Shown here in pieces: positions 11,119 through 55,974 of a DNA stretch of 64,000 nt. The stretch is from Candidatus Nomurabacteria bacterium (GTDB lineage: Bacteria; Patescibacteriota; Patescibacteriia; HK-STAS-PATE-3), in assembly GCA_023898465.1 (NCBI GenBank), contig CP060223.1, forward strand, positions 608,001 through 672,000. The letters run 5' to 3'. Under the pieces are notes generated by a model. The model saw only the letters and a program-made list of their open reading frames with translations, ran no database searches and had not been told where the DNA came from. The first letter of the stretch is position 1, and every line of letters starts with the position of its first letter. The position numbers and the translations under genes are program-made.

Positions 11119-11195
11119 TGGTCGGGGTGGGGAGACTCGAACTCCCGACCTCAGCGACCCGAACGCTGCGCGCTAGCCAACTGCGCTACACCCCG
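11119..11195 (-). tRNA. tRNA-Pro (anticodon CGG)
   Basis: I folded the reverse complement by hand. The acceptor stem is CGGGGTG/CACCCCG. The D-arm is GCGC-AGTTGGCTA-GCGC. The anticodon stem CAGCG/CGCTG carries the loop TTCGGGT. The T-arm is GGGAG-TTCGAGT-CTCCC and CCA is encoded. Confidence 0.8.
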
Positions 11196-16803: not shown

Positions 16804-17178
16804 CTAGACGCCGAGTTTCGTTTTCACTTTTTCAACTAAATCTTCTAGCTTCCAGTCTGCCTTTACGAGAAAATCAAAAACCTTATTCTCAAGCGCTTTC
16901 TGCACTTTGTCAGCATCATTTAAGTTGGTCAACATCATAACCGGCACGTCGCTCCCCCACTCATCATCCCGTAATTGTGACAACATGGTAATCCCATCCA
17001 TCTTAGGCATGACAATATCGAGCAGAATGAGGTCAGGATGTTCCTGCATTGCTACTGATAGTCCCTGTATACCATCACTAGCTCGAAGCACTGTAAACTT
17101 TTCATGCTCTAACTTATCACCGAGTGCCCGAAGTAATGCTGAATCATCTTCAACAACGAGAATTTTTTTTACTGGCAT
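16804..17178 (-). CDS. Stand-alone REC-domain response regulator (paralog 1)
   Basis: It carries ILVVEDD, the phospho-acceptor Asp in LILLDIVMPKMDG, Thr/Ser in LTNL and Lys in DFLVK. It is 124 aa with no output domain. Confidence 0.85.
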   Translation of the reverse strand: MPVKKILVVEDDSALLRALGDKLEHEKFTVLRASDGIQGLSVAMQEHPDLILLDIVMPKMDGITMLSQLRDDEWGSDVPVMMLTNLNDADKVQKALENKVFDFLVKADWKLEDLVEKVKTKLGV

Positions 17179-17180
17179 AA

Positions 17181-17555
17181 TTATTTTAACCCTTCCTTAA
17201 TTTTTTTAATTATATCTTCTAAAGTCCATTCTGATTTCACTATAAACTGACTCACCCCGCCGGCGATTGCCTTATCTTTTTCCCCGGCATAATCTAAATT
17301 GGTCAATATCATGACTTTGACATTTTTACCCCAATCATCCTCACGGAGTTTTTCCAACATTGTCATCCCGTCCATCTTAGGCATGACAATATCGAGCAGG
17401 ATGAGATCGGGATGTTTACTAAAGGCAACATTTAAACCCGCCATACCATCAGGAGCCTCCAAGCAAGTGTACTTTTCTTTTGACAACTTTTGACAAAGCG
17501 CCTGACGAATTGACGGATCATCCTCGATAACCAGTATTGTTTTTGTACTCTGCAT
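17181..17555 (-). CDS. Stand-alone REC-domain response regulator (paralog 2)
   Basis: It is about 60% identical to paralog 1, with the same motifs (ILVIEDD, LILLDIVMPKMDG, LTNL and FIVK). Confidence 0.85.
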   Translation of the reverse strand: MQSTKTILVIEDDPSIRQALCQKLSKEKYTCLEAPDGMAGLNVAFSKHPDLILLDIVMPKMDGMTMLEKLREDDWGKNVKVMILTNLDYAGEKDKAIAGGVSQFIVKSEWTLEDIIKKIKEGLK

Positions 17556-17557
17556 AG

Positions 17558-17956
17558 TTACTCCTTAAGGTCTAACGAGCGCTCGATTGCATCGACAATT
17601 GCATCGAGTCGATGGTCGGTTTTAGTGAAATAATTTTGAATACCAAGTTGAAGATAGGCTTTTTGCGCATCAGCACTTGCAGTATTTGAAACGACAAAAA
17701 CTGGGATATTTTTCCAGCGGGAATCTTCAGCCTTTATCTTTGCCAGGAAATGAAGGCCATTATCACTTCCTAATAAATAATGATCTAGCCAAATCACATC
17801 AATACGATCAATCTCTTCAATGTAATGCAAGGCCTGTTCAGATGTTCGGGCGCATACTACAGAAAAATCTCGACTTTCAAGTTTTTTTTGGATTGCGCTG
17901 GCGAGAGGGCGCTCATCCTCAACTACAAGTATAACCTTATCAATTTTTTGTACCAT
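17558..17956 (-). CDS. Stand-alone REC-domain response regulator (divergent paralog 3)
   Basis: It carries ILVVEDE, an Asp in VIWLDHYL, Ser/Thr in VVSNT and Lys in YFTKT. It is 132 aa. Confidence 0.75.
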   Translation of the reverse strand: MVQKIDKVILVVEDERPLASAIQKKLESRDFSVVCARTSEQALHYIEEIDRIDVIWLDHYLLGSDNGLHFLAKIKAEDSRWKNIPVFVVSNTASADAQKAYLQLGIQNYFTKTDHRLDAIVDAIERSLDLKE

Positions 17957-26931: not shown

Positions 26932-27297
26932 CTAGGTGAATAAAAATCGCAGGACCAACAATAGCGCCCCAAGTACACATAACACCGCCCAATTGCGAAA
27001 ACCGTAAGGAGCGTATCGCTTGCCAGCCACTAATTCAAATAATGTCTTTTCATCACCGTAGCGAGCGTGCACAACCCCCAAGGGACAATTTCCATGATTC
27101 AACATCACAATAATCCACTGCCCTGCAAGTAGGGCTATACTGGCAATCGTCCATAAATTAAGCGCCCGGAAAAGACCTGAGTACCAAAGATACCCAGTGG
27201 CTAAAGTCATGCTTATGCCAATAATAAAATGACCAAAGCGCACCACATATACCATTCGCTGATAAGGCTTTGCGGACGACACTGTATTCATATACAT
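26932..27297 (-). CDS. Small hypothetical membrane protein
   Basis: It is 121 aa with 3-4 TM helices. It lies immediately downstream of element A and tRNA-Trp. Confidence 0.4.
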   Translation of the reverse strand: MYMNTVSSAKPYQRMVYVVRFGHFIIGISMTLATGYLWYSGLFRALNLWTIASIALLAGQWIIVMLNHGNCPLGVVHARYGDEKTLFELVAGKRYAPYGFRNWAVLCVLGALLLVLRFLFT

Positions 27298-27316
27298 ATC
27301 CTAGCACAAAGCAGGA

Positions 27317-27494
27317 TGCAAACGCCGAAGACTTGGGCCCGAAGGGTTAAGTCTTCTAGGGGGCCCCGCTGCAAACCAAGGACCTCGAGCCTGCCGAGAG
27401 GGACTGTTTGCAGTGGGGAAAAGGGACATCCTTGCAAAGGGCGCAGTGAAGACAATTTGTTGTCGTCACGGAGCCCACAGCAAGTGATGGCCCG
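27317..27494. repeat. Conserved GC-rich structured element, copy A (candidate ncRNA or tRNA-linked repeat)
   Basis: It is about 58% GC in AT-richer surroundings. It shares a 20-mer (gcaaacgccgaagacttggg) and several other blocks with copy B. It abuts the 3' end of tRNA-Trp. It contains hairpins GAAGACTT...AAGTCTTC and CTGCAAAC(27368-75)/GTTTGCAG(27405-12). Confidence 0.5.
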
Positions 27495-27568
27495 TGGCAG
27501 GGGCGGAAGGTGTCGAACCCTCGTTACCGGTTTTGGAGACCGGTGTTCTACCGTTGAACTACGCCCCC
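27495..27568 (-). tRNA. tRNA-Trp (anticodon CCA)
   Basis: I folded it by hand. The D-arm is GTTC-AACGGTA-GAAC. The anticodon stem CCGGT/ACCGG carries the loop CTCCAAA. The T-arm is GAGGG-TTCGACA-CCTTC. The acceptor stem has a G1-U72 wobble and CCA is encoded. Confidence 0.75.
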
Positions 27569-27592
27569 ACAGATTCGTAGAATCAATGAAGA

Positions 27593-27748
27593 CTATTTTG
27601 TCTCTTTATGGAGAGTATGCTTTTTGCACCACTTACAGTGCTTTTTCATCTCAAGTCGACCTTTGAGGGTCTTCTTGTTTTTGAAGCTGTGATAGTTGGT
27701 GCGCTTGCACACCGTGCATTCCAGCTTAATAAGATTATCTTGGGACAT
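27593..27748 (-). CDS. rpmG: 50S ribosomal protein L33
   Basis: I translated it by hand as [51 protein letters not shown]. It is a 51 aa CxxC...CxxC zinc ribbon. It falls below the 60 aa cutoff of the ORF track. Confidence 0.85.
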
Positions 27749-27787
27749 AGCAGTATATTATTTATGCGTATATTCTTGCCGACCGCC

Positions 27788-27863
27788 TGGAGCCGATGGT
27801 CGGATTCGAACCGACGACCTTCACTTTACAAAAGTGTTGCTCTACCAACTGAGCTACATCGGC
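27788..27863 (-). tRNA. tRNA-Thr (anticodon UGU)
   Basis: The acceptor stem is GCCGATG/CATCGGC. The D-arm is GCTC-AGTTGGTA-GAGC. The anticodon loop is TTTGTAA. The T-arm is GTCGG-TTCGAAT-CCGAC and CCA is encoded. Confidence 0.85.
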
Positions 27864-27880
27864 GCCCGGCGCTTGGCAAG

Positions 27881-28189
27881 TTATGAAAGCTCTAAGCGAG
27901 GAAAAATATCGATGGCTGGTTCTTCATAAGGGTGCGCCTGCTTCAACGCTATTATTACCTCCTCTACTTTTTCCTTATGACAGAGCATGCGAATCACTTC
28001 CTCTTCCACAATCTCTTCCTGACCAATCTCCCCTATGGCAGGATGCGCTCCCTCTTGCGGGATGAAACGTCCAGTAGTGCGATAGCTTCCACTACAGTGT
28101 GAATAGTTGCCCATCTTCCCTGCGCCAGCATCACCCATTGCCTTACGAACTGCATCAGCTTGGGGCACTGGCACCGAGGTGCGAATCAT
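27881..28189 (-). CDS. NIF3-family fragment ORF (motif GNYSHC...HPYEEP only; ~100 aa, lacks the rest of a NIF3 protein)
   Basis: The translation MIRTSVPVPQADAVRKAMGDAGAGKMGNYSHCSGSYRTTGRFIPQEGAHPAIGEIGQEE...HPYEEPAIDIF matches a conserved segment I recall from YqfO/YbgI-type NIF3 proteins. The ORF is open up to 28264 but would run into element B. A full NIF3 is 250-370 aa. Confidence 0.45.
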   Translation of the reverse strand: MIRTSVPVPQADAVRKAMGDAGAGKMGNYSHCSGSYRTTGRFIPQEGAHPAIGEIGQEEIVEEEVIRMLCHKEKVEEVIIALKQAHPYEEPAIDIFPRLELS

Positions 28190-28228
28190 AACGTATTCTG
28201 ATTCTTGAAGTGACATAAGGAATAGAGT

Positions 28229-28456
28229 GCAAACGCCGAAGACTTGGGATTTTTGGGGCTCCATTTGAAACCAAGGATCTCGAGCCTGTCGAAAGAGACT
28301 GTTTCAAATGAGGAAAGGGACATGCGCCGTAAGGGCTTTCAAACGCCGAGCGCTTGGGCCGACAGGTTAAGTGCGAGGCGTAAAGGCACACGCTGGCAAA
28401 GGGTGGAGTGTTCTCGTTTTAACGAGGACACGCAACCCGCAGCCAGCGATGGGCCG
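28229..28456. repeat. Conserved GC-rich structured element, copy B (candidate ncRNA or tRNA-linked repeat)
   Basis: It is the second copy of element A, at roughly 70% identity, and abuts the 3' end of tRNA-Tyr. The hairpin equivalent to the one in copy A is TTTGAAAC(28264-71)/GTTTCAAA(28301-08). Three base pairs differ from copy A in a compensatory way. It also contains an internal partial duplication of its 5' block. Confidence 0.5.
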
Positions 28457-28543
28457 TGGTGGGCCGGGTAGGATTCGAACCTACGAAGGCGCAAGGCCAG
28501 CAGATTTACAGTCTGCCCCCGTTGACCGCTTGGGTACCGACCC
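28457..28543 (-). tRNA. tRNA-Tyr (anticodon GUA), class II with long variable arm
   Basis: The anticodon stem GCAGA/TCTGC carries the loop CTGTAAA. The variable arm is 15 nt. The T-arm is GTAGG-TTCGAAT-CCTAC. The acceptor stem is GGGTCGG/CCGGCCC and CCA is encoded. Confidence 0.8.
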
Positions 28544-28571
28544 TCATGTGAGGAAATGATCTCACCACTCC

Positions 28572-28647
28572 TGGAGCCGATGAGCGGATTTGAACCGCTG
28601 ACCTACTCCTTACCATGGAGTTGCTCTACCAACTGAGCTACATCGGC
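28572..28647 (-). tRNA. tRNA-Thr (anticodon GGU)
   Basis: The acceptor stem is GCCGATG/CATCGGC. The anticodon stem ACTCC/GGAGT carries the loop ATGGTAA. The T-arm is AGCGG-TTCAAAT-CCGCT and CCA is encoded. Confidence 0.85.
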
Positions 28648-28694
28648 ACAATGTAGCACCAGAAGTAATAAGACCATTATTTTTTATGAATGAA

Positions 28695-29552
28695 CTACAG
28701 TGCTTTTACCTGCTCATCAAATTCACTAAGGCGCTGATTTTCCGGATTCACTTCCTTAAGCTTATCAAAGACTCGTATAGCGAGTAGCTTCTTCTTTGCC
28801 TCAATGGCTAGCTCAAGCGTGCCGTGAAGAAACTTAGGATTATTTGGCATGAGCTCCAAAGCGCTTTCGCAACTATCTACCGCATCATCGTACTCACCCA
28901 AGCCTCGTTGTGCCATGCAAAGATCGTAACGGAGTTCGGCCATTTCTGAGCTGTAACCACCGATGTTTTGACTTGGCTGACCATTTGGCTGCTGAACACC
29001 TTTTACCTGATAGGTACGCTGAGCTAAATCAAGCGCATGACGGAAAACATCTCTGGCTTGTGCGTGCTCTTTCATTCGCAGATACACATCACCGAGAATT
29101 CGATACGCATCAATACTCTTCGGCTCAATCGCGATAGCTTCGATACAGCGCTGCTCAGCCTCACTATATTGCTCGTTCTTACTTAGGCTTTCCGCTTCTT
29201 CGATGAGTAAGACCACTTTACGCTGCGCTTCAGCTCGCTCACTTGGAGATCGCTCTGAGTGCGCTCGCTGGCGATACTGTCGTTCAATGGATTGTAAACG
29301 GGCGTAGAAACTTCGAGCCGCTCCCCTACCTCGATTCACTAGACCATGCAATCTTCCAATAGTCTTTTCATGCACTCCATCAAGTTTACGCTGCAAGCGG
29401 CGCTCGATCAGATCAAGCTTACGCTGTGTCTCCTGCTCACTCTTAATCTTACGCGTATCAATCGATGTGAGGCTCGGAAGCTTTCGAAACAGTACCACCG
29501 CAATGACGGCGATACCGGCAACGATCAGGATAATGAGTGCGATGTCGAGCAC
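28695..29552 (-). CDS. Membrane-anchored TPR-repeat protein
   Basis: It has an N-terminal TM helix, a charged coiled-coil region and several TPR-like units (AIAIEPKSIDAYRILGDVYLRMKEHAQA...). Confidence 0.55.
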   Translation of the reverse strand: MLDIALIILIVAGIAVIAVVLFRKLPSLTSIDTRKIKSEQETQRKLDLIERRLQRKLDGVHEKTIGRLHGLVNRGRGAARSFYARLQSIERQYRQRAHSERSPSERAEAQRKVVLLIEEAESLSKNEQYSEAEQRCIEAIAIEPKSIDAYRILGDVYLRMKEHAQARDVFRHALDLAQRTYQVKGVQQPNGQPSQNIGGYSSEMAELRYDLCMAQRGLGEYDDAVDSCESALELMPNNPKFLHGTLELAIEAKKKLLAIRVFDKLKEVNPENQRLSEFDEQVKAL

Positions 29553-32606: not shown

Positions 32607-33429
32607 GCTACTAGTCCTGGGTGAGCAAAAATTATACAAAGTAGCCAAGCAGCATGCCAGACAAGATGCTGAAGCACTTTTACGCATAGTGCTGAAAAAA
32701 GATGTGGCTTGGCTTTTTGTGCATAGTGAAAAAACACTGACCCAGAGACAATATCTAGCCTATCAACAAATCCTCAAGCGCCGGGCAAAAAACACCCCAC
32801 TCGCCTATCTGCGTGGCTGGCAAGACTTTTACGGACGCAGATTTCATGTTGGTCCAGGCGTGCTGATTCCACGTCCAGAAACTGAAGCACTTATTGACTT
32901 AGCGCTGCAGTATTTCCCAGCCGCGAAAAAACTGCAGGTGGCCGACCTAGGCAGCGGCTCCGGCTGTATAGCCCTTAGCTTAGCCTGCGAGCGACCAAGG
33001 TGGCAGATCTATGCAACCGAACTATCCTCATCAGCAATCCACTATGCCCGTAAGAATGCCAAGCATTGGCAGCATAAAAATCTCCACATCATGCAAGGAA
33101 ATATGCTTCAACCATTACGCACAACAGCGCTCGACCTTATCGTGGCAAATCTCCCCTACCTTAAACCAGGAGAGGCAAAAGACGACAGCGTGGCGAAAGA
33201 GCCGAGGAAAGCTCTCGTAGCAGGTCAGGATGGCCTAAACGCTTTTCGTGTGTTATTCCAGCAAGTACAAAAACGTCCTGATACACCTACACTGCTTTTG
33301 GAAATCGATCCGCGGCGTAAGAAGGATTTACAAAAACTCCATCGTCAACTCCTGCCACAGTATCGGGCCAAATGGAAAAAAGACCTCAGCGGCCATTGGC
33401 GAGTCCTGGTCCTCGAATCGAAAATTTAA
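32545..33429 (+). CDS. prmC: Release-factor glutamine N5-methyltransferase
   Basis: It has a SAM motif (VADLGSGSGCIALSLA) and the catalytic NLPY, a variant of NPPY (IVANLPYL). It lies immediately downstream of prfA. The start is uncertain because no in-frame alternative to the first ATG avoids overlapping prfA. Confidence 0.75.
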   Translation: MALTQLSKRSKQKPSKQTIAKLLVLGEQKLYKVAKQHARQDAEALLRIVLKKDVAWLFVHSEKTLTQRQYLAYQQILKRRAKNTPLAYLRGWQDFYGRRFHVGPGVLIPRPETEALIDLALQYFPAAKKLQVADLGSGSGCIALSLACERPRWQIYATELSSSAIHYARKNAKHWQHKNLHIMQGNMLQPLRTTALDLIVANLPYLKPGEAKDDSVAKEPRKALVAGQDGLNAFRVLFQQVQKRPDTPTLLLEIDPRRKKDLQKLHRQLLPQYRAKWKKDLSGHWRVLVLESKI

Positions 33430-34571
33430 TGGTACGGGAAACCTCGTCCGTCAGGAATCACTTCAACCCAGCTTTGTCCTCGATTGAACTTCATTTCTGT
33501 CCCGTCATCAGCGTAAAAAACCGTGCGGTCAGTTCGGGTTGGTTTTTCCCAATGTCCTTCTATCACTAAACCGTCCCGGAAAAGCACGGCTTTACCCTGA
33601 CCGGTCACATTTAGGGTGAGACGTCCTTTTTCACCAATAGCAACGATTTCTGGAATCACTTGTACGACAACATTCTTTGGAGCTATTTGCACATTTTGTG
33701 CACGATCCATGTGGGGATCATTCGCATTGAAACGCAGGTACACATTACGTTCGCGATCATATTCATAGTGCGGATTATAGGTACCGCTGGAATATTGTAA
33801 GCTCAGTTCAGTAAAATTCCCTCGTGCCTCTATAGCATCCTCATCTTTAAAACGCCAGGAACGAAAATCAGGCTGCACATCTTCATATTGTAGGTCGCGC
33901 ATTGCAAAAGTGAGCTTTTCAGTATTTGTATAAAGATTATGCGGAGCATAGCCAGCGCCGCGATAACAGTATCGGGCAGCGTTTGTTAAACAATTCAAAT
34001 CACGCAAGCTAAACCCGGATAACTCTTGCAGAGCCTCGGGACTCCCTCCCGCGTGCATATACGCAGCATTATACTCTGACAACCACTCAATATAGACAGG
34101 ACGAGCACTACGTACCGGACCCAACTCTCCACTCACATTATCAGGACTAAAGACCGCCATGATACGAGTCGCTCCTCCTTCTACCAAAGTATTGTAAGCA
34201 ACTGAGGCTTTACTTAAGTTTGCATGAGGGCGGGCATCCGGATGATTATCAAACATGATGATCCACGGCAGTAGATTTGCCTTCTCTTTTGCTACCAAGA
34301 CTCCATCAAGCTGACGTGGCAATTCAGTCGCTTCAGTCTCCGGTAAATGATTTGCATCTTCGTTTGTGAAAGCAGCATTTACTGTAACAGCGTTTTCAAT
34401 TCCAATACCATTGTTAGCATCACTATTGCCAGTAAAGGCAACCGCAGCCCATAACAGGGATCCACTCAAGACCACTAAAACAGCTAAGCTAATACCAATC
34501 ACCCTGGGATTATTCCAGGGGTGGTTTTTTGGCTTAGCGTGATGTTCCTTTGTGTGTGCTTTCTCTTTCAC
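33426..34571 (-). CDS. Secreted/membrane-anchored protein, paralog B of a tandem pair (possibly DUF3048/YerB-like)
   Basis: It has an N-terminal TM helix. It carries the conserved block GPVRSARPVYIEWLSEYNAAYMHAGGSPEAL, shared with the upstream paralog. The family assignment is tentative. Confidence 0.45.
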   Translation of the reverse strand: MKEKAHTKEHHAKPKNHPWNNPRVIGISLAVLVVLSGSLLWAAVAFTGNSDANNGIGIENAVTVNAAFTNEDANHLPETEATELPRQLDGVLVAKEKANLLPWIIMFDNHPDARPHANLSKASVAYNTLVEGGATRIMAVFSPDNVSGELGPVRSARPVYIEWLSEYNAAYMHAGGSPEALQELSGFSLRDLNCLTNAARYCYRGAGYAPHNLYTNTEKLTFAMRDLQYEDVQPDFRSWRFKDEDAIEARGNFTELSLQYSSGTYNPHYEYDRERNVYLRFNANDPHMDRAQNVQIAPKNVVVQVIPEIVAIGEKGRLTLNVTGQGKAVLFRDGLVIEGHWEKPTRTDRTVFYADDGTEMKFNRGQSWVEVIPDGRGFPYH

Positions 34572-34580
34572 TCAAATCCC

Positions 34581-35705
34581 CTAATAGGTGACCTGTCGAT
34601 CATCTGGAAAAACCTGTACCCAGGTTTGCCCGGCGTTAAAAATGAGTTGTTGGCCTTCTAAATCGGTAAAAATTGTGCGGGCGCTGGTGGAAGATTTTGA
34701 CCAGCGTGCCGGAATCGCCTCACCGTCGCGGAAAAGAATAGCATCACCGGATCCAACAACATCCATGCTTAAGCGGGTCGCATCAGCTAAACGTGTACCA
34801 ACATATTGCACCAGCACATTCTTTGGGCTAATTTGCTCACCAGTATTCTGATCCGTATGCGCCTCATCGCCCTGGAATCGCAGATAAGTATTTTCTTCAC
34901 GATTATAGGTGTACTTTACCTCATAACTCTTGCTCGAGTAATCAAGCACAATCGGATTTACTTCAAGTGGCCTATCTGCTAAAGCAGCTTCCTCTTTAAA
35001 CTTCCAACCTGTGTAATCCCCTGTCATTGTTGCCTCTTTATCCCGCAAAGCAAATTGCAGGAGCTCAGTGGAAGTGAAAAGTGTATGTTCGGTCGCTCGT
35101 GGAAGATTTTTTCTCCAGTAATACTGGGAGTTATAGAATTGATCAAGGTCAAACACATCTTTGGAGCGAATATCTGCCAAAGCGGTAGGACTACCACCAG
35201 CGTGAGCATATATCGCGCCTAGCTCGTTTGCCCAATCAACATAATATGGTCGAGCACTGCGTACTGGTCCTAACTCAGGAATATCATCGGTTAAGAGGTA
35301 GACTGCTAGGAATCGTGTAATGCCGCCTTCAACTAAGGCCTCGTATACCACATTTGCTTGGCCAAGACCGCTTTGGGGGCGGACAATTGAAAGATTCTCT
35401 ATCATCACGCCAACTGGTCGTGGATTTTTATTCGCAGCAACATCAAGCACGCCATCAAGCACTCGTCGAACTTTTTGCTCGCTAGGCTGATTTGTATTAG
35501 TGACAATTACTTGCCCGTCATCGCTATCATCCGTTCGAGTAAGCAAAAAACCTGCTAATGCAACGACCGCAAGCACGACAACAACAAGAGTGATCTGGAC
35601 CGGCCTTTTCTTTAACCAAAGCGTCATTTTACCCTGCGGTTTGGCTGGTACTGCTACCTGCTCTACCCCCTCTTTCATCTCTCCTTTGGTATCCCCCTTA
35701 GGCAT
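34581..35705 (-). CDS. Secreted/membrane-anchored protein, paralog A of a tandem pair (possibly DUF3048/YerB-like)
   Basis: It has an N-terminal TM helix. It carries GPVRSARPYYVDWANELGAIYAHAGGSPTAL. The paralogs are collinear and about 40% identical. Confidence 0.45.
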   Translation of the reverse strand: MPKGDTKGEMKEGVEQVAVPAKPQGKMTLWLKKRPVQITLVVVVLAVVALAGFLLTRTDDSDDGQVIVTNTNQPSEQKVRRVLDGVLDVAANKNPRPVGVMIENLSIVRPQSGLGQANVVYEALVEGGITRFLAVYLLTDDIPELGPVRSARPYYVDWANELGAIYAHAGGSPTALADIRSKDVFDLDQFYNSQYYWRKNLPRATEHTLFTSTELLQFALRDKEATMTGDYTGWKFKEEAALADRPLEVNPIVLDYSSKSYEVKYTYNREENTYLRFQGDEAHTDQNTGEQISPKNVLVQYVGTRLADATRLSMDVVGSGDAILFRDGEAIPARWSKSSTSARTIFTDLEGQQLIFNAGQTWVQVFPDDRQVTY

Positions 35706-47735: not shown

Positions 47736-49262
47736 TCAGTCAACCAGCACTTCCCTCCTATCAAAGTGCTGTTCGCAGTAGTGGCAGGCCAGGACTTCCC
47801 GCCCTTCTCCGTTCACATGAAAGTGAGGATAGAGCGCTGCCTCCGCATCACACCTGGTCACGCAAGCCGGGTTGGGACAAGATCCGATACCGGTGATCTC
47901 ACGCACGGTCGCCACCCGCCGCTTCGTTAGCACACCATCACGAATTTCGTTGATGGTCACTTGAGGCACCAAGATGCCGATGGCAGAGAGCTCCCTTGCA
48001 TTCAAGAAAACATCTTCCAGCCGGAGCGTATCCTTCTTGCCGCCCTGACCATTAGACCGCAGTCCCTGATCAAGTCCCACGTAGTGCGCATTTGGATCCA
48101 GACCGAGCACCGACTGAATCCTCCTGCCAAAACCTACAGGCAAATGATCAAGTACCGTCCCGTTACTGATGGGCAAGAAGCGCTGCTGCGCCAACTGCTT
48201 GCGAGCAATCGCTTCATCAGCCGACCCACTTCGCACATCCTCGATCTCCGGCCCAATCACCTCAAGAGGTGTCTCCGCACAGCGACTATGGAGCGCCTCA
48301 TTCAAAAGGGCCATCCTGATCGGCACGCCGTTCGCTGCCTGAGCGTCGATGATGACTCGTGGGTCACCGAGGACAGAAGGATGAATCTCATTGTCACCGA
48401 TCGGCAGGGGGTGCATCACCAAGACCTTAGACCCAAGCATGTCTAGGGCCGCCTGGTCAATCGTGAAACGACCGGCAACCCTGTGGTATTCGTACTCGCT
48501 CGGGAAACGCTCTCGTTGCACCCGAGTCGCATAGACCAAGTGGCACCCTGCCAGCGTCTCCAAATCACTCGCCACGGTGACATTGTACATGCCTCTCGTA
48601 TACCACCACTGCAACTGTGCTTCCGGTGCTGAGACTAGTACAATCTCCACACCCTCTAGCAGGCGCAGTGCGCGAATCAAGGAATGCACCGTGCGAGAAT
48701 ACTTGAAATCACCCACGAAACCAATCTTGAAACCATTCAGTCGACCCAAATGGCGCCGAATGGTGTAGAGATCAAGAAGGGTCTGGCTGGGATGCTCATT
48801 CGCACCGTCGCCAGCATTGAGTACGCAGAGTTGCATACCTCGCCGTGCAGCCATCTCAGCCACCCAACGAGGAGCACCCTCCACTTTTGTCCGCATCACC
48901 AGGGCTGACCCATTGTAGCCGCAGAACATTCGTGCGGTTGCCCCGAGTGTCTCCCCCTTTACCAAGGAAGTTCCCTCGGCCCCTGAGGTCAGCACATGCG
49001 GCAGACCCAGCAGACGCGCTGCCTCCTCGAATGATCCGGCGGTCCTAGTGCTCGGCTCTCCAAAGAGAAGCCGCACAACACCTTGATCGCTAACACTCGG
49101 CAAAGGCTCGCCCTTCTCCCAAGTCATTCGATAGGACTCAGCACTTGCCAAAACCCCATCGATGAAAGGAAGATCGAAATCACCAACCGAGATCACATGC
49201 TTCACTGCTTGCCTCCTTGTCAACCCAAGCAACAACTTCGATGTTAAACACAGAAGGTTCAC
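47736..49262 (-). CDS. pyrBI: Aspartate carbamoyltransferase catalytic chain fused to regulatory chain (PyrB-PyrI single polypeptide)
   Basis: Residues 1-330 carry the STRT carbamoyl-phosphate motif (FGEPSTRTAGSFE) and the HPxQ motif (HPSQTLLDLYTI). Residues ~355-508 match PyrI (GTVLDHLP, zinc domain CPNPAC...CHYCEQHF). The frame has no internal stop. The gene is about 58% GC. Confidence 0.7.
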   Translation of the reverse strand: MNLLCLTSKLLLGLTRRQAVKHVISVGDFDLPFIDGVLASAESYRMTWEKGEPLPSVSDQGVVRLLFGEPSTRTAGSFEEAARLLGLPHVLTSGAEGTSLVKGETLGATARMFCGYNGSALVMRTKVEGAPRWVAEMAARRGMQLCVLNAGDGANEHPSQTLLDLYTIRRHLGRLNGFKIGFVGDFKYSRTVHSLIRALRLLEGVEIVLVSAPEAQLQWWYTRGMYNVTVASDLETLAGCHLVYATRVQRERFPSEYEYHRVAGRFTIDQAALDMLGSKVLVMHPLPIGDNEIHPSVLGDPRVIIDAQAANGVPIRMALLNEALHSRCAETPLEVIGPEIEDVRSGSADEAIARKQLAQQRFLPISNGTVLDHLPVGFGRRIQSVLGLDPNAHYVGLDQGLRSNGQGGKKDTLRLEDVFLNARELSAIGILVPQVTINEIRDGVLTKRRVATVREITGIGSCPNPACVTRCDAEAALYPHFHVNGEGREVLACHYCEQHFDRREVLVD

Positions 49263-53473: not shown

Positions 53474-54163
53474 TTATTTTAGCACTTCTTGTACAGTCTT
53501 CCAGACTTGCTCAGCAATATGTTCGCGATCCTGCATCACGCCATTTTTGGTACACGTTATCACCTTCCAGGAAAAACGTGCTGATAAGCGATGCGCCATT
53601 TCCCAACTCGTCTGCTGATGACGTTTATTCTTTTCCAGACTATCGACAGCCTTTCCGCCCAGGTAATTACGATGACCTTTTGCTCGTACGAGCTTACGTC
53701 CTATGGTATGCGGCACGGAGAGAAAAACAGTCAGATCAGGCTTGAGCACTCCAAGTATGTGATACTCCATTTCTTCTAACCAATGGAGATACTCCTTCTG
53801 CTCCAAAGCTGTTTGAAACTTGGCCGCCTGATGCATCATGCTTGAGGAAGTATAGCGATTACAGACAACTACTTTCCCTTGCGCTAACCATTTATTCAAC
53901 TGATCCTTTGCCTGCCAACGATCAAGTGCATACAAGAGTGAGGCAAGATAAGGATTCACTTTTAGTGTCGGTCCAAATTTGCCCTGAATGAATTGACCGA
54001 CCATGGCCCCAAAGAAACTTTCATCATAACGAGGAAAATCAGCTAAGGCAGTCTGATACCCCTGCTTTTTTAGACGCTGAATAAGGAGACCAGCTTGCGT
54101 TGCCTTGCCAGATCCATCCACCCCGTCGAGTACGATCAGTTTTCCGCTTTGCTTCTTTTTCAC
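53474..54163 (-). CDS. tmk: Thymidylate kinase
   Basis: Its P-loop is LIVLDGVDGSGKATQAGLL, matching the Tmk signature. It has a DR(Y/W) motif region. Confidence 0.75.
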   Translation of the reverse strand: MKKKQSGKLIVLDGVDGSGKATQAGLLIQRLKKQGYQTALADFPRYDESFFGAMVGQFIQGKFGPTLKVNPYLASLLYALDRWQAKDQLNKWLAQGKVVVCNRYTSSSMMHQAAKFQTALEQKEYLHWLEEMEYHILGVLKPDLTVFLSVPHTIGRKLVRAKGHRNYLGGKAVDSLEKNKRHQQTSWEMAHRLSARFSWKVITCTKNGVMQDREHIAEQVWKTVQEVLK

Positions 54164-54223
54164 AGGCCAAGTTTAGCATACGCAAGAGCCAAATTCCAAG
54201 TTTTTTATCCAATGATGCATCAC

Positions 54224-54252
54224 TTGAAAAAAGCTGTAAAAACACCTACAAT
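54224..54252 (+). promoter_or_regulatory. sigma70-like promoter of the thyX-like gene
   Basis: It is TTGAAA, a 17 nt spacer and TACAAT, 18 nt upstream of the ATG at 54271. Confidence 0.45.
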
Positions 54253-54270
54253 CCCCATGCTTTTCCGCTA

Positions 54271-55974
54271 ATGATTCCACCCATGCCTACATTCACACCC
54301 GAAGAAATCGAAGTGCTCAAAAAGTATATCACCGACCCCACGGGTGATGTTTTTTGTATTAAAAACATGCCTGGTCTGGTTGGAGCAGCCTATGCCCGCT
54401 ACAGCCGTGCCCGTGGCGGATTTCGAGAAGTACTACTCAAAGAATTTATTAGCGAAGGGGTGGTAGACGCCGAGCATGCGGAAGATCTTATCGAGCGTGT
54501 CTTAATTGCCTATGGCGATGATTCAGTTGGCGAATTAGAAGGCGCTCACATCTCTTTTGAAAATATCTCCATACTTGCCACGAAAGAAATTGAAGAATGT
54601 CGCATTGGTGGCTCCCCCATCGAGCAATCCACTCGTTATGTTTTCTACGACCAAAAAGATGCGCAGGGAAAATATAAATACATTGTCCCGCCTGAACTAG
54701 AAGGAAGCGATTTAGCAAATGAATATACCGAGGCCATGGACTTCCTCTTTGACACCTACTGCCGCCTCATCGAACCCATGAAGGAATTTTATAAGAAGCG
54801 ATTGCCCCTGAAGCAAGCTGAATATGATGTGCTAGGAAATGGCAATAAGCAGCACTATGAAGAGCTGGAAAATGAAAAAGACCAAAAAGCCTTTAAGACA
54901 ACTTATAACATGGATATTCGCACAAAGGCCTGCGACACTTTGCGCTATATCCTCCCACTAGCAACGACCACCAACGTCGGTATTTTTGGCAATGGCCGAT
55001 TCCATCAAAGCATGATCTCTGCTCTACTCTCCAGTCATTTTCGAGAAACCCAAAGGCTGGGCGATGCGGCTTTGCGAGAGCTGAGTAAAATAATTCCGGT
55101 CTATGTGCGGCGCGCCAAGCGAGATGAATATCGCACCACGATTGAACATGACATGGAACGCTTAGTAAGCGACTTACTCGCCAATGTGGAGGCAGAAACC
55201 CCGACTGAAGAAATACACCTTATGGACGAAGGCGAGGCGTATATTGCGAAACATTTGAACGGCCAAAGCGACCCTGCGGCGCTTCGTCAAGCTATAGCCC
55301 GATATCGTGATACTTCCCTCCTGGCCCACATCCTCTATGCCTACGCCCAGCATCCTTTGTCACAGCTAATGGATTTTGTTGAGCAACTTTCAGAAGAAAA
55401 ACGTAAAGAGATTATTGATACCTACATTGGTCAGCGCCGCACCCGTCGTGACCGCCCTTATCGTGCTTTTGAAAGCGGCTACCCCTACACCTTTGACCTG
55501 GTTACCGACTTTGGCAGCTACAAAGATCTCATGCGCCATCGCATGACCACGCAGCTACGTCAGCGCTTCTCGCCTGAGCTGGGCTTTGCCATGCCGCAAG
55601 ATATTATTGAGGCAGGCTTCAGCGAAGAGATTCAGGCTTGTCATGAGCGCTCACAAGAACTTTATCGCAAGCTAGCCAAGCAACTTCCTCAGATTGCTCA
55701 ATATGCTGCCCTGCACGGCTCTAAAGTGCGCTGGGTGATTGGGATGAACGAACGAGAGGCCTATCACCTACTTGAACTCCGCACCACTCCACAGGGCCAT
55801 CCTGCCTATCGTAAAGTCGGCCAGGAGATGCACAAACGTATTCAGGAGCGTTCAGCTTGGCGCGCCGCCCGTATGAGCTTTGTTGACCACAACAGCTACA
55901 CCTCTGCTCGCGGCGACTCAGAGGCAAAGCAGCGAGTCAAAGAACGCAAATACGAAGAAACGCACGGCGCCTAA
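54271..55974 (+). CDS. Flavin-dependent thymidylate synthase-like protein (Thy1/ThyX family, double-length ~567 aa)
   Basis: Its ThyX-like N-terminus is MPGLVGAAYARYSRA. It has an RHR-containing segment (YKDLMRHRMTTQLRQRF) resembling the ThyX motif RHRxxSxxxLxQRY. The track ORF begins upstream at 54100 and overlaps tmk. I place the start at the internal Met that has a promoter. Confidence 0.5.
   Translation: MIPPMPTFTPEEIEVLKKYITDPTGDVFCIKNMPGLVGAAYARYSRARGGFREVLLKEFISEGVVDAEHAEDLIERVLIAYGDDSVGELEGAHISFENISILATKEIEECRIGGSPIEQSTRYVFYDQKDAQGKYKYIVPPELEGSDLANEYTEAMDFLFDTYCRLIEPMKEFYKKRLPLKQAEYDVLGNGNKQHYEELENEKDQKAFKTTYNMDIRTKACDTLRYILPLATTTNVGIFGNGRFHQSMISALLSSHFRETQRLGDAALRELSKIIPVYVRRAKRDEYRTTIEHDMERLVSDLLANVEAETPTEEIHLMDEGEAYIAKHLNGQSDPAALRQAIARYRDTSLLAHILYAYAQHPLSQLMDFVEQLSEEKRKEIIDTYIGQRRTRRDRPYRAFESGYPYTFDLVTDFGSYKDLMRHRMTTQLRQRFSPELGFAMPQDIIEAGFSEEIQACHERSQELYRKLAKQLPQIAQYAALHGSKVRWVIGMNEREAYHLLELRTTPQGHPAYRKVGQEMHKRIQERSAWRAARMSFVDHNSYTSARGDSEAKQRVKERKYEETHGA

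Follow-up and report, generated by a model that had tools for sequence, protein, structure and literature searches.

Putative modular palindromic elements at tRNA gene ends in Patescibacteria and Bacteroidales

Background

Several kinds of short structured sequences offer points of comparison for elements A and B, two related, GC-rich sequences that abut tRNA genes in the metagenome-assembled genome of a Candidatus Nomurabacteria bacterium (assembly GCA_023898465.1, contig CP060223.1). The stretch analyzed here, positions 608,001 to 672,000 of that contig, is referred to as the window; it is 64,000 nucleotides (nt) long, and coordinates are counted from its first letter unless another contig is named.

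REP sequences of proteobacteria occur in hundreds of copies per genome. The BOX elements of Streptococcus pneumoniae are intergenic, lack open reading frames (ORFs) and are modular, with the general build boxA-boxB(n)-boxC, variable in the number and order of modules and with stable predicted folds. The mitochondria of Allomyces contain double-hairpin elements. Non-autonomous elements derived from IS200/IS605, which are associated with palindromes, carry subterminal hairpins and have neither terminal inverted repeats nor target duplications. External transcribed spacer RNAs of tRNA precursors, for example, the 3' external transcribed spacer (3'ETS) of leuZ in Escherichia coli, are released by tRNA processing and can be functional. 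REPs are described as 20-40 bp long, with a GTAG or CGTC tag at one end (PMC3733652), and the GC clusters of yeast mitochondria are mobile GC-rich palindromic elements (PMC4478555).

We put at roughly 0.5 the probability that A and B are copies of a modular palindromic insertion element residing in transcribed spacers that flank tRNA genes. Judging from the sequences compared, this element family appears to be previously undescribed and to be represented in two bacterial phyla; a search of the full-text literature found no description of such an element. A non-autonomous palindromic element of the REP/BOX/GC-cluster kind is the best fit because the family consists of discrete blocks that are present or absent between close relatives, occur in several copies per genome, in either orientation and in two phyla, combine shuffled modules and adjoin a recombination boundary. 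The unusual trait, compared to other elements of this kind, is the position at the exact ends of tRNA genes.

Elements A and B

Along the minus strand, both elements follow a tRNA 3' end and precede a small ORF, the order given in an earlier note that was made from the sequence of the window, and neither contains an ORF. They are built of hairpins denoted H1, H2 and H3, as follows.

27317..27494, minus strand: element A, consisting of H1, H2, H3 and a tail (model R1 match of 155.9 bits)
27423..27494, minus strand: A-H1, 72-nt rod-like hairpin with small internal loops, first base 1 nt after CCA (fold, covariation)
27364..27418, minus strand: A-H2, CCCCACUGCAAAC-AGUC-(apical hairpin)-UCCUUG-GUUUGCAGCGGGG (fold, covariation)
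27317..27356, minus strand: A-H3, hairpin GAAGACUU...AAGUCUUC plus tail GGCGUUUGCA; contains the 20-mer common to A and B (fold, repeat family D7)
28229..28456, minus strand: element B, consisting of H1, an inserted H3-like module, H2 and the 3' half of H3 (alignment to A; model R1 matches of 80.5 + 50.7 bits)
28385..28456, minus strand: B-H1, 72-nt rod-like hairpin, first base 1 nt after CCA (minimum free energy fold; covariation, A2 helices 1-3)
28320..28384, minus strand: B-specific insert with an imperfect H3-like module (CGCCUCGCACUUAACCUGUCGGCCCAAGCGCUCGGCG) and a third copy of the common word (gap in the A/B alignment; repeat family D7)
28259..28313, minus strand: B-H2, hairpin with the invariant core AAAC-AGUC ... 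UCCUUG-GUUU (R1 model, H2 alignment)
28229..28248, minus strand: 20-mer of B, CCCAAGUCUUCGGCGUUUGC, identical in A; the 3' half of H3 without its partner arm, ending 12 nt before the ORF start (alignment, repeat family D7)

The GC content is 0.58-0.59 in 200-nt windows over the elements vs 0.469 for the whole window, a contrast already recorded in the earlier note, and the alignment of A with B, which includes the ~65-nt insert of B, has a mean column identity of 74%, close to the ~70% estimated there. The exact word common to the two elements, given earlier as a 20-mer, is the 21-mer TGCAAACGCCGAAGACTTGGG (27317-27337 and 28228-28248), and a third copy of it, with 81% identity, lies inside B (28338-28358). 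A conserved 21-nt block, CAGGCTCGAGRTCCTTGGTTT, is found in only two places in the 64 kb, the two elements, with a chance expectation of 0.01.

A-H2 is a 55-nt hairpin, CCCC-A-CUGCAAAC / GUUUGCAG-C-GGGG, formed around an internal loop, AGUC (5') / UCCUUG (3'), and an apical hairpin. As previously claimed, an 8-bp helix is preserved between the two elements by exactly three compensatory changes (CUGCAAAC/GUUUGCAG in A and UUUGAAAC/GUUUCAAA in B). The proposed GNRA hairpins (GCAA in A, GUAA in B) did not hold up: the two motifs are at non-homologous positions, in the 3' arm of H1 in A and in the B-specific insert, and neither is a loop in the covariation-supported structure. The hairpin GAAGACTT...AAGTCTTC is complete in A, whereas the ORF-proximal end of B keeps only its 3' half, with an imperfect full copy in the middle of B. 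Two further candidates were dropped, namely, a tertiary pairing CCAAG/CUUGG between H3 and H2, which is absent from the copies in contigs L016 and L021 described below, and a third copy in the window at 35257-35381 (model match of 16 bits, E = 0.05), which lies inside a DUF3048 coding sequence.

Copies in other genomes

A search via the neighboring proteins and with one degenerate DNA pattern revealed five further copies, in contigs L015, L016, L021 and, twice, L025, bringing the family to seven copies in six contigs. Three of these are in Patescibacteria. L015, from a close relative in which the ORF downstream of A (ORF121) is 98% identical, has a copy 3' of tRNA-Trp; L016, in which the ORF downstream of B (ORF111) is 76% identical, has one 3' of tRNA-Tyr, at the site orthologous to that of B; and L021 has one 3' of tRNA-Lys. 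The two copies in L025, a contig assigned to Bacteroidales by its ribosomal protein S21 of the Paludibacteraceae/Bacteroidales type, flank tRNA-Leu, one of them on the 5' side of the tRNA, in an orientation to the tRNA opposite to that of the Patescibacteria copies. These homologues contradict the possibility, raised earlier, that the blocks are confined to this genome. In the Patescibacteria copies, an H1 of 72-75 nt precedes H2, and in all five H1-bearing copies, the junction is CCA followed directly by CGG(G/C).

Searched with a covariance model of the H1+H2 alignment, neither the window nor ~140 kb of related loci yielded an additional copy. The exact pattern AGGCTCGAGNTCCTTGGTT, which is too specific to A and B, gave 4 matches in 185,579 species genomes, all due to chance, in unrelated phyla and non-hits by the model. 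Three patterns searched against viral contigs yielded 0, 52 and 4 matches, all of them chance coding-sequence matches without flanking stems, and BLAST against phage and plasmid collections returned no match.

Presence, absence and module exchange

In contigs L009-L012, only 25 nt separate tRNA-Tyr from the homologue of ORF111, at the site where the window has B and L016 its own copy; the compact block B, of ~210 nt, parts two genes that adjoin each other in L009. In L025, one clean block of 220 nt replaces a 9-nt stretch just upstream of tRNA-Leu, and another, of 240 nt, directly follows tRNA-Leu, each carrying H2. In five close relatives (L093-L097, S21 98% identical), whose flanks are 90-99% identical to those in L025, nothing interrupts the series promoter, tRNA-Leu, rpsU.

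The build of the elements is mosaic. The H3-like module lies between H1 and H2 in B and after H2 in A, and the modules H3, M4 and mini-H2 are added, lost or reordered among the copies. The copies in L016 and L021 share the 45-nt module M4 at 95.6% identity, with ~73% identity in H1/H2; the H2 sequences of L025 and L016, which belong to two phyla, are 88% identical over 52 nt.

The window and L015 are 86.8% identical overall, whereas element A together with the first ~90 nt of the ORF reaches 92-100% per 50-column window (~96% overall and 99% over H1), which makes A more conserved than the flanking coding DNA. The tRNA-Trp of the window is identical to that of L015 at 62 of 74 positions (84%) and to that of the more distant L009 at 70 of 74 (95%). 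Because identity between the window and L015 jumps at the junction of the tRNA and the element, a recombination boundary is placed there. The tRNA-Trp genes of L015 (29-102) and of the window (27495-27568) show compensatory differences in three stems, and comparison of these sequences points to a putative exchange of the tRNA-Trp allele or its flank.

Fragments of tRNA genes are found beside intact tRNAs in relatives (L009 2699-2888 and 3817-4058; L016 700-800 and 882-940), including a 23-nt, 96% match to tRNA-Thr (L009 2748-2770), a second ...CACCCCTGCCA after tRNA-Trp and a T-arm-plus-acceptor fragment after tRNA-Thr in L016. These regions of L009 and L016 also hold other GC-rich perfect palindromes, e.g., CCTGCCGGCAGG, and in one of them ARAGORN reports a pseudo-tRNA on the opposite strand. 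The tRNA-flanking spacers are evidently unstable in this lineage. In L025, a ThiF-family gene (226-1017) that adjoins one of the inserted elements is upstream of rpsU, on the opposite strand, and is only 72-78% identical to its counterparts in L093-L097, which are downstream of rpsU on the same strand (2249-2923); the difference could be due to inversion, replacement or paralogy.

Known families and hallmarks of mobility

No known RNA family accounts for either copy on either strand, which agrees with the failure of the earlier note to place them. At the gathering threshold, Rfam 15 finds only tRNAs in the window, and with E up to 10, on both strands of 27200-28700, only sub-threshold noise appears over the elements: sX4 (19.7 bits, threshold 70) and Tymo_tRNA-like (17.9, threshold 40), both running on from the adjoining tRNAs, and mir-2004 (17.9, threshold 100). 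Likewise, no Rfam family matches the elements in L015, L016, L021 or L025.

Group I introns are common in tRNA genes of Patescibacteria, where they are inserted in the anticodon loop (PMC13011429). Such introns were rejected here: the tRNAs are intact (55-74 bits), the elements lie outside of them and no intron model matches. Integron attC sites, in which the foot of the hairpin carries boxes with the consensus RYYYAAC and GTTRRRY, were also rejected, the feet of the present hairpins, NGCAAAC / GTTTGCN, fitting neither box. On the element strand, A and B lack the GTAG and CGTC tags of REPs, and their hairpins measure 55-75 nt. In neither A nor B do the two ends form inverted repeats, as those of miniature inverted-repeat transposable elements would. 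The boundaries of the L025 insertions, compared with L093/L094, show neither terminal inverted repeats nor target-site duplication. Of the features of IS200/IS605-type elements, the family has the hairpins and the lack of inverted repeats and duplications; CCA forms the 5' flank of all five Patescibacteria copies and of neither of the two L025 copies. No Y1 transposase, RAYT, TnpA or TnpB was seen among the 46 window ORFs scanned.

The exact start of the element sequence at the tRNA end, the identity jump at that junction in L015, the tRNA fragments beside intact tRNAs in L009 and L016, a known mark of integration, and the missing tuf and secE neighbors (by comparison with the usual gene order given below) are compatible with the remaining end of a prophage, island or other integrative element that used the tRNA 3' end as the attachment site, the sequence after CCA being the incoming arm region. 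We consider such an origin distinctly unlikely. The last 12 or 16 nt of either tRNA do not recur, even at up to 3 mismatches (3 in 12 nt included), in the 2.5 kb after tRNA-Trp or between tRNA-Tyr and the next tRNA, and there is no integrase among the 46 ORFs; furthermore, B is a compact block between genes that are neighbors in L009, and the same modules lie behind three different tRNAs, with one L025 copy on the 5' side of its tRNA. What remains of the suggestion in the earlier note that an old direct repeat was left by integration at tRNA 3' ends is insertion at tRNA ends, which fits presence and absence among relatives.

Folding, covariation and strand

On both strands, A and B fold far better than dinucleotide shuffles (z of -3.0 to -6.9; for A, -5.1 on the minus strand and -6.9 on the plus strand). 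In the alignment of H1+H2 from five sequences, 93.6% of the cells form standard pairs, compared to 41-47% when the partners are slid by 1-3 columns; 17 of the 42 pairs have changed in both partners, and the values observed are reached by 0 of 500 shuffles. In the seven copies of H2, two-sided changes affect 8 of 15 pairs, and AAACAGUC...UCCUUGGUUU is invariant, including the internal loop and the AAAC/GUUU closing pairs. The family core of H2 is a stem, CCCC..NCAAAC / GUUUGN..GGGG, with the invariant loop AGUC (5') / UCCUUG (3') and a variable apical hairpin. Given the excess of pairing and the two-sided changes in both alignments, we regard the hairpins as real and maintained; the covariation originally pointed out between A and B thus extends to homologues.

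Both strands fold because the stems are near-palindromic. In each of the five Patescibacteria copies, the strand antisense to the tRNA folds better (z of -5.2 to -6.1 vs -3.4 to -4.8). In the second insertion of L025, the operon-sense strand does so (z = -4.0 vs -1.2), and this is the same element strand as the tRNA-antisense one of Patescibacteria. An assignment to the minus strand on the basis of G.U pairs in the apical stem of H2 was dropped because the seven-copy alignment reveals, for A and B, an alternative register without G.U pairs, and the fold energies favor the other strand.

These fold energies are matched by two G.U pairs that H3 gains on the plus strand and by GUAAAC/GUUUGC in both L025 copies, a G.U on that strand, all of which would suit a separate plus-strand gene for a small RNA, which here would be antisense to the tRNA operon and, on the same element strand, co-directional with tRNA-Leu and rpsU in L025. 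Such a gene appears very improbable given that neither copy has a promoter- or terminator-like site for a plus-strand unit, that the transcript would run into the antisense of a tRNA, and that the asymmetry may partly reflect composition, this strand being G-rich.

Genomic setting and flanking ORFs

The minus-strand gene order around the elements is rpsB, tsf, a TPR protein, tRNA-Thr(GGU), tRNA-Tyr, B, ORF111, tRNA-Thr(UGU), rpmG, tRNA-Trp, A and ORF121. The tRNAs are where the earlier note had put them, and the genes of the cluster are as follows.

28572..28647, minus strand: tRNA-Thr(GGU), first tRNA in the cluster (ARAGORN and Rfam tRNA, 72.2 bits)
28457..28543, minus strand: tRNA-Tyr(GUA), encoded CCA ending at 28457, element B from 28456 (ARAGORN, Rfam tRNA)
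27881..28216, minus strand: ORF111, hypothetical protein of 111 amino acids (aa), 3' of element B (no Pfam family)
27788..27863, minus strand: tRNA-Thr(UGU) (ARAGORN, Rfam tRNA)
27593..27748, minus strand: rpmG, ribosomal protein L33 (Pfam PF00471, E = 1e-18)
27495..27568, minus strand: tRNA-Trp(CCA), encoded CCA ending at 27495, element A from 27494 (ARAGORN, Rfam tRNA)
26932..27297, minus strand: ORF121, hypothetical membrane protein of 121 aa, 3' of element A (no Pfam family); the start is probably the ATG at 27291

A tRNA-Thr/Tyr/Thr-rpmG-Trp cluster of this type is usually accompanied by tRNA-Gly, tuf, secE and nusG. The cluster in the window (27495-28647) lacks these four genes, and, by comparison with that usual order, A and B sit at the breaks.

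The public annotation starts ORF111 at the second ATG, giving 102 aa, and this form (27881-28189) is identical to an NCBI protein with the locus tag H6760_03175. The start at 28216 is likelier because the homologues are 110-111 aa long and have the common N-terminus M(S/P)L(Q/R)ESE(Y/F)V. With that start, only 12 nt, without a Shine-Dalgarno sequence, separate element B from the ORF. Neither after B nor after the L016 copy is there a recognizable Shine-Dalgarno sequence at the downstream ORF.

Exact-protein look-ups found no record for ORF121 or for L33, in the latter case because rpmG is uncalled in contig L013. In this contig, from a public Logan assembly of the same organism (601-1258, equivalent to window ~27229-27886, plus strand), two spurious ORFs of 92 and 145 aa, called on the opposite strand, span the tRNAs, rpmG and element A.

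On the minus strand, a simple scan detected no promoter-like site between the tRNAs, the elements and the ORFs, and the sole terminator-like match in this interval is weak and lies inside H2. Because no such site separates them, the elements are presumably transcribed together with the tRNAs. On either strand, no sigma-70-like promoter or U-tailed terminator brackets A or B by scan rules that may not fit this phylum, and no U-tailed terminator follows A or B. No element is present downstream of the tRNA-Pro at 11119-11195.

The location of the elements directly upstream of the small ORFs, on the same strand and with extensive structure, along with a local hairpin in A, AUCCU...AGGAU, over the likely ribosome-binding site, could suggest a riboswitch or another gene-specific cis-regulator of these two ORFs. 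This reading, which the earlier note offered as a cis-regulatory leader, is hardly tenable and is largely refuted by synteny. Homologues of ORF111 and ORF121 in the Patescibacteria contigs L001-L004 are ~10-35 nt from other upstream genes, with no element; the gap before the ORF111 homologue in L009-L012 is 25 nt; the other copies precede unrelated genes and have shuffled modules; and there is no Rfam match.

Origin and possible function of the elements

In the reading that we favor, the palindromic insertion element would spread at the DNA level, moved in trans by an enzyme that is not encoded nearby or by recombination, and would survive beside tRNA genes because the spacers there are cut away in tRNA processing. 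The reversed orientation to the tRNA in L025 makes a DNA palindrome a better fit than a strand-specific RNA. In the window, transcription would proceed within the long same-strand block rpsB-tsf-TPR-tRNAs-ORF-tRNA-rpmG-tRNA-ORF, such that the element is probably transcribed as a tRNA trailer that is also the 5' leader of the ORF behind it. Once the tRNA 3' end is cleaved, H1 would lie at the very 5' end of the downstream mRNA, where it could act as a protective hairpin or as a double-strand processing site.

Several observations weigh against an insertion element. No transposase, integrase or reverse transcriptase is encoded among the 46 window ORFs, and terminal inverted repeats, target duplications and tRNA-end repeats are all lacking. 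The family is rare, with only 2 copies in 64 kb and only 2 other contigs found in scans of public data, and the L025 indels, read here as gains, may be losses. Each of the five copies with H1 begins exactly 1 nt after CCA, in the orientation of the tRNA, which random insertion plus tolerance does not explain. Broken pairs are few, and across the two phyla the internal loop does not vary, as expected of a structure under selection at each site. The strand evidence is mixed, with G.U pairs on both strands and better folding of the tRNA-antisense strand in Patescibacteria. The invariant loop, the few broken pairs and the exact CCA+1 start pull toward a functional RNA or a single-stranded DNA recognized by a protein.

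A functional RNA processed from the tRNA transcript is accordingly a possible, if more doubtful, account. Here, the tRNA would be the processing handle, and cleavage at its 3' end would free an RNA beginning with H1, which may be either a 5' stabilizer or RNase III-type site of the mRNA or a small RNA derived from the trailer, with a protein-binding AGUC/UCCUUG loop. Besides the compensatory changes that keep the hairpins and the invariant loop with its AAAC/GUUU closing pairs in seven copies, this account draws on the position of H1 behind three different tRNAs in Patescibacteria, on the divergence of B from its L016 counterpart at an orthologous site, with both H1 and H2 retained, on the conservation of A between the window and L015, and on the lack of a promoter-like site between tRNA and ORF in the window. 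It sits poorly with the empty site in L009-L012, with the inversion of the L025 copies relative to the tRNA operon, which makes the complement the transcribed strand there, with a fold asymmetry that favors the other strand, and with rpmG, which also follows a tRNA and has no H1-like hairpin. Moreover, the next ORF in L021 is separated from the element by a good extended -10 (TGGTATACT), so there the element is not the leader of that ORF.

It is unlikely, in our estimate, that H1-H2 is a previously undescribed structured RNA, transferable horizontally, for which the adjacent tRNA is the processing handle and whose loop binds a partner conserved in Patescibacteria and Bacteroidales. Its 5' end would be set by cleavage after CCA or, when the element is upstream of the tRNA, its 3' end by RNase P. 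On one strand, the AGUC/UCCUUG loop is similar to the 3' tail of 16S rRNA and, on the other, to a Shine-Dalgarno sequence (CCAAGGAG). Of the structured RNA gene envisaged in the earlier note, the relatives are real, the hairpins are compensated and no Rfam family matches, whereas presence and absence, shuffling, either orientation and 88% identity between two phyla make a mobile or recombining palindrome the better fit.

Other features of the window

Three tandem genes for single-domain response regulators (124, 124 and 132 aa; 16804-17956, minus strand) lie beside that of an 807-aa Cache/PAS histidine kinase, the first two being a DNA duplication of 73% identity (repeat family D1). Two tandem paralogous DUF3048 genes (381 and 374 aa) occupy 33426-35705 on the minus strand. 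A single ORF of 508 aa (47736-49262, minus strand) contains both the catalytic (PyrB) and the regulatory (PyrI) domains of aspartate carbamoyltransferase. A ThyX-like ORF (54100-55974, plus strand), with 624 aa, is far longer than usual, and its Thy1 match is in two stretches; it might be a fusion, an insertion or a mis-joined ORF.

Implications

If the favored reading is correct, A and B represent a new family of non-coding, hairpin-built insertion elements at the exact boundary of tRNA genes. Common to the Candidate Phyla Radiation and Bacteroidales, the family would mark DNA exchange of an episymbiotic lineage with other bacteria, would help explain the breaks in gene order at tRNA genes in these small genomes, and would pose a concrete question on tRNA 3'-end processing with a stable hairpin one base after CCA. 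Should the elements be functional RNAs instead, they would be a new RNA class with a defined candidate protein-binding loop. The spurious ORFs called over the element and the tRNAs instead of rpmG in one public assembly are a warning for annotation.

Comparison with known systems

With the 3'ETS type of RNA, the A/B family, when read as a processed RNA, shares the release of an RNA piece from a tRNA precursor. The 3'ETS of leuZ, in contrast, is short, confined to a single locus and base-pairs with small RNAs; it is not multi-copy, modular or horizontally spread.

The non-autonomous IS200/IS605 derivatives resemble the family in having hairpins without inverted repeats or duplications, and the CCA junction would follow from an insertion preference for the 3' side of a short fixed sequence. 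A presumed likeness of the CCCC..GC / GC..GGGG stems to the end hairpins of IS608 is treated as a lead only. Unlike these elements, the A/B family comes with no TnpA/TnpB among the window ORFs, the L025 copies do not follow CCA, and the right-end boundary is undefined.

The GC-rich elements of organelles are, similarly, short GC-rich hairpins in a genome of lower GC content that are present or absent between close relatives, often lie beside tRNA genes in transcribed spacers and have been proposed as RNA processing sites. They differ in being organellar, much shorter and of other sequence families, and we know of no description of the exact CCA+1 junction among them.

BOX elements share with the family the modular build with variable number and order of modules, the stable predicted structure, the intergenic location and the lack of an ORF. 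However, they share no sequence similarity with the family, occur without a link to tRNA ends and are limited to one genus.

Finally, the proteobacterial REP/BIME sequences, which are moved by RAYT transposases, are likewise intergenic mosaics of modules, with imperfect palindromic hairpins and no ORF, that are transcribed with neighboring genes, as is presumed for A and B, with a possible effect on RNA stability. Compared to these, the A/B family stands apart by hairpins of 55-75 nt without GTAG/CGTC, 2 copies in 64 kb, no RAYT in the window ORFs and a strictly tRNA-abutting position.

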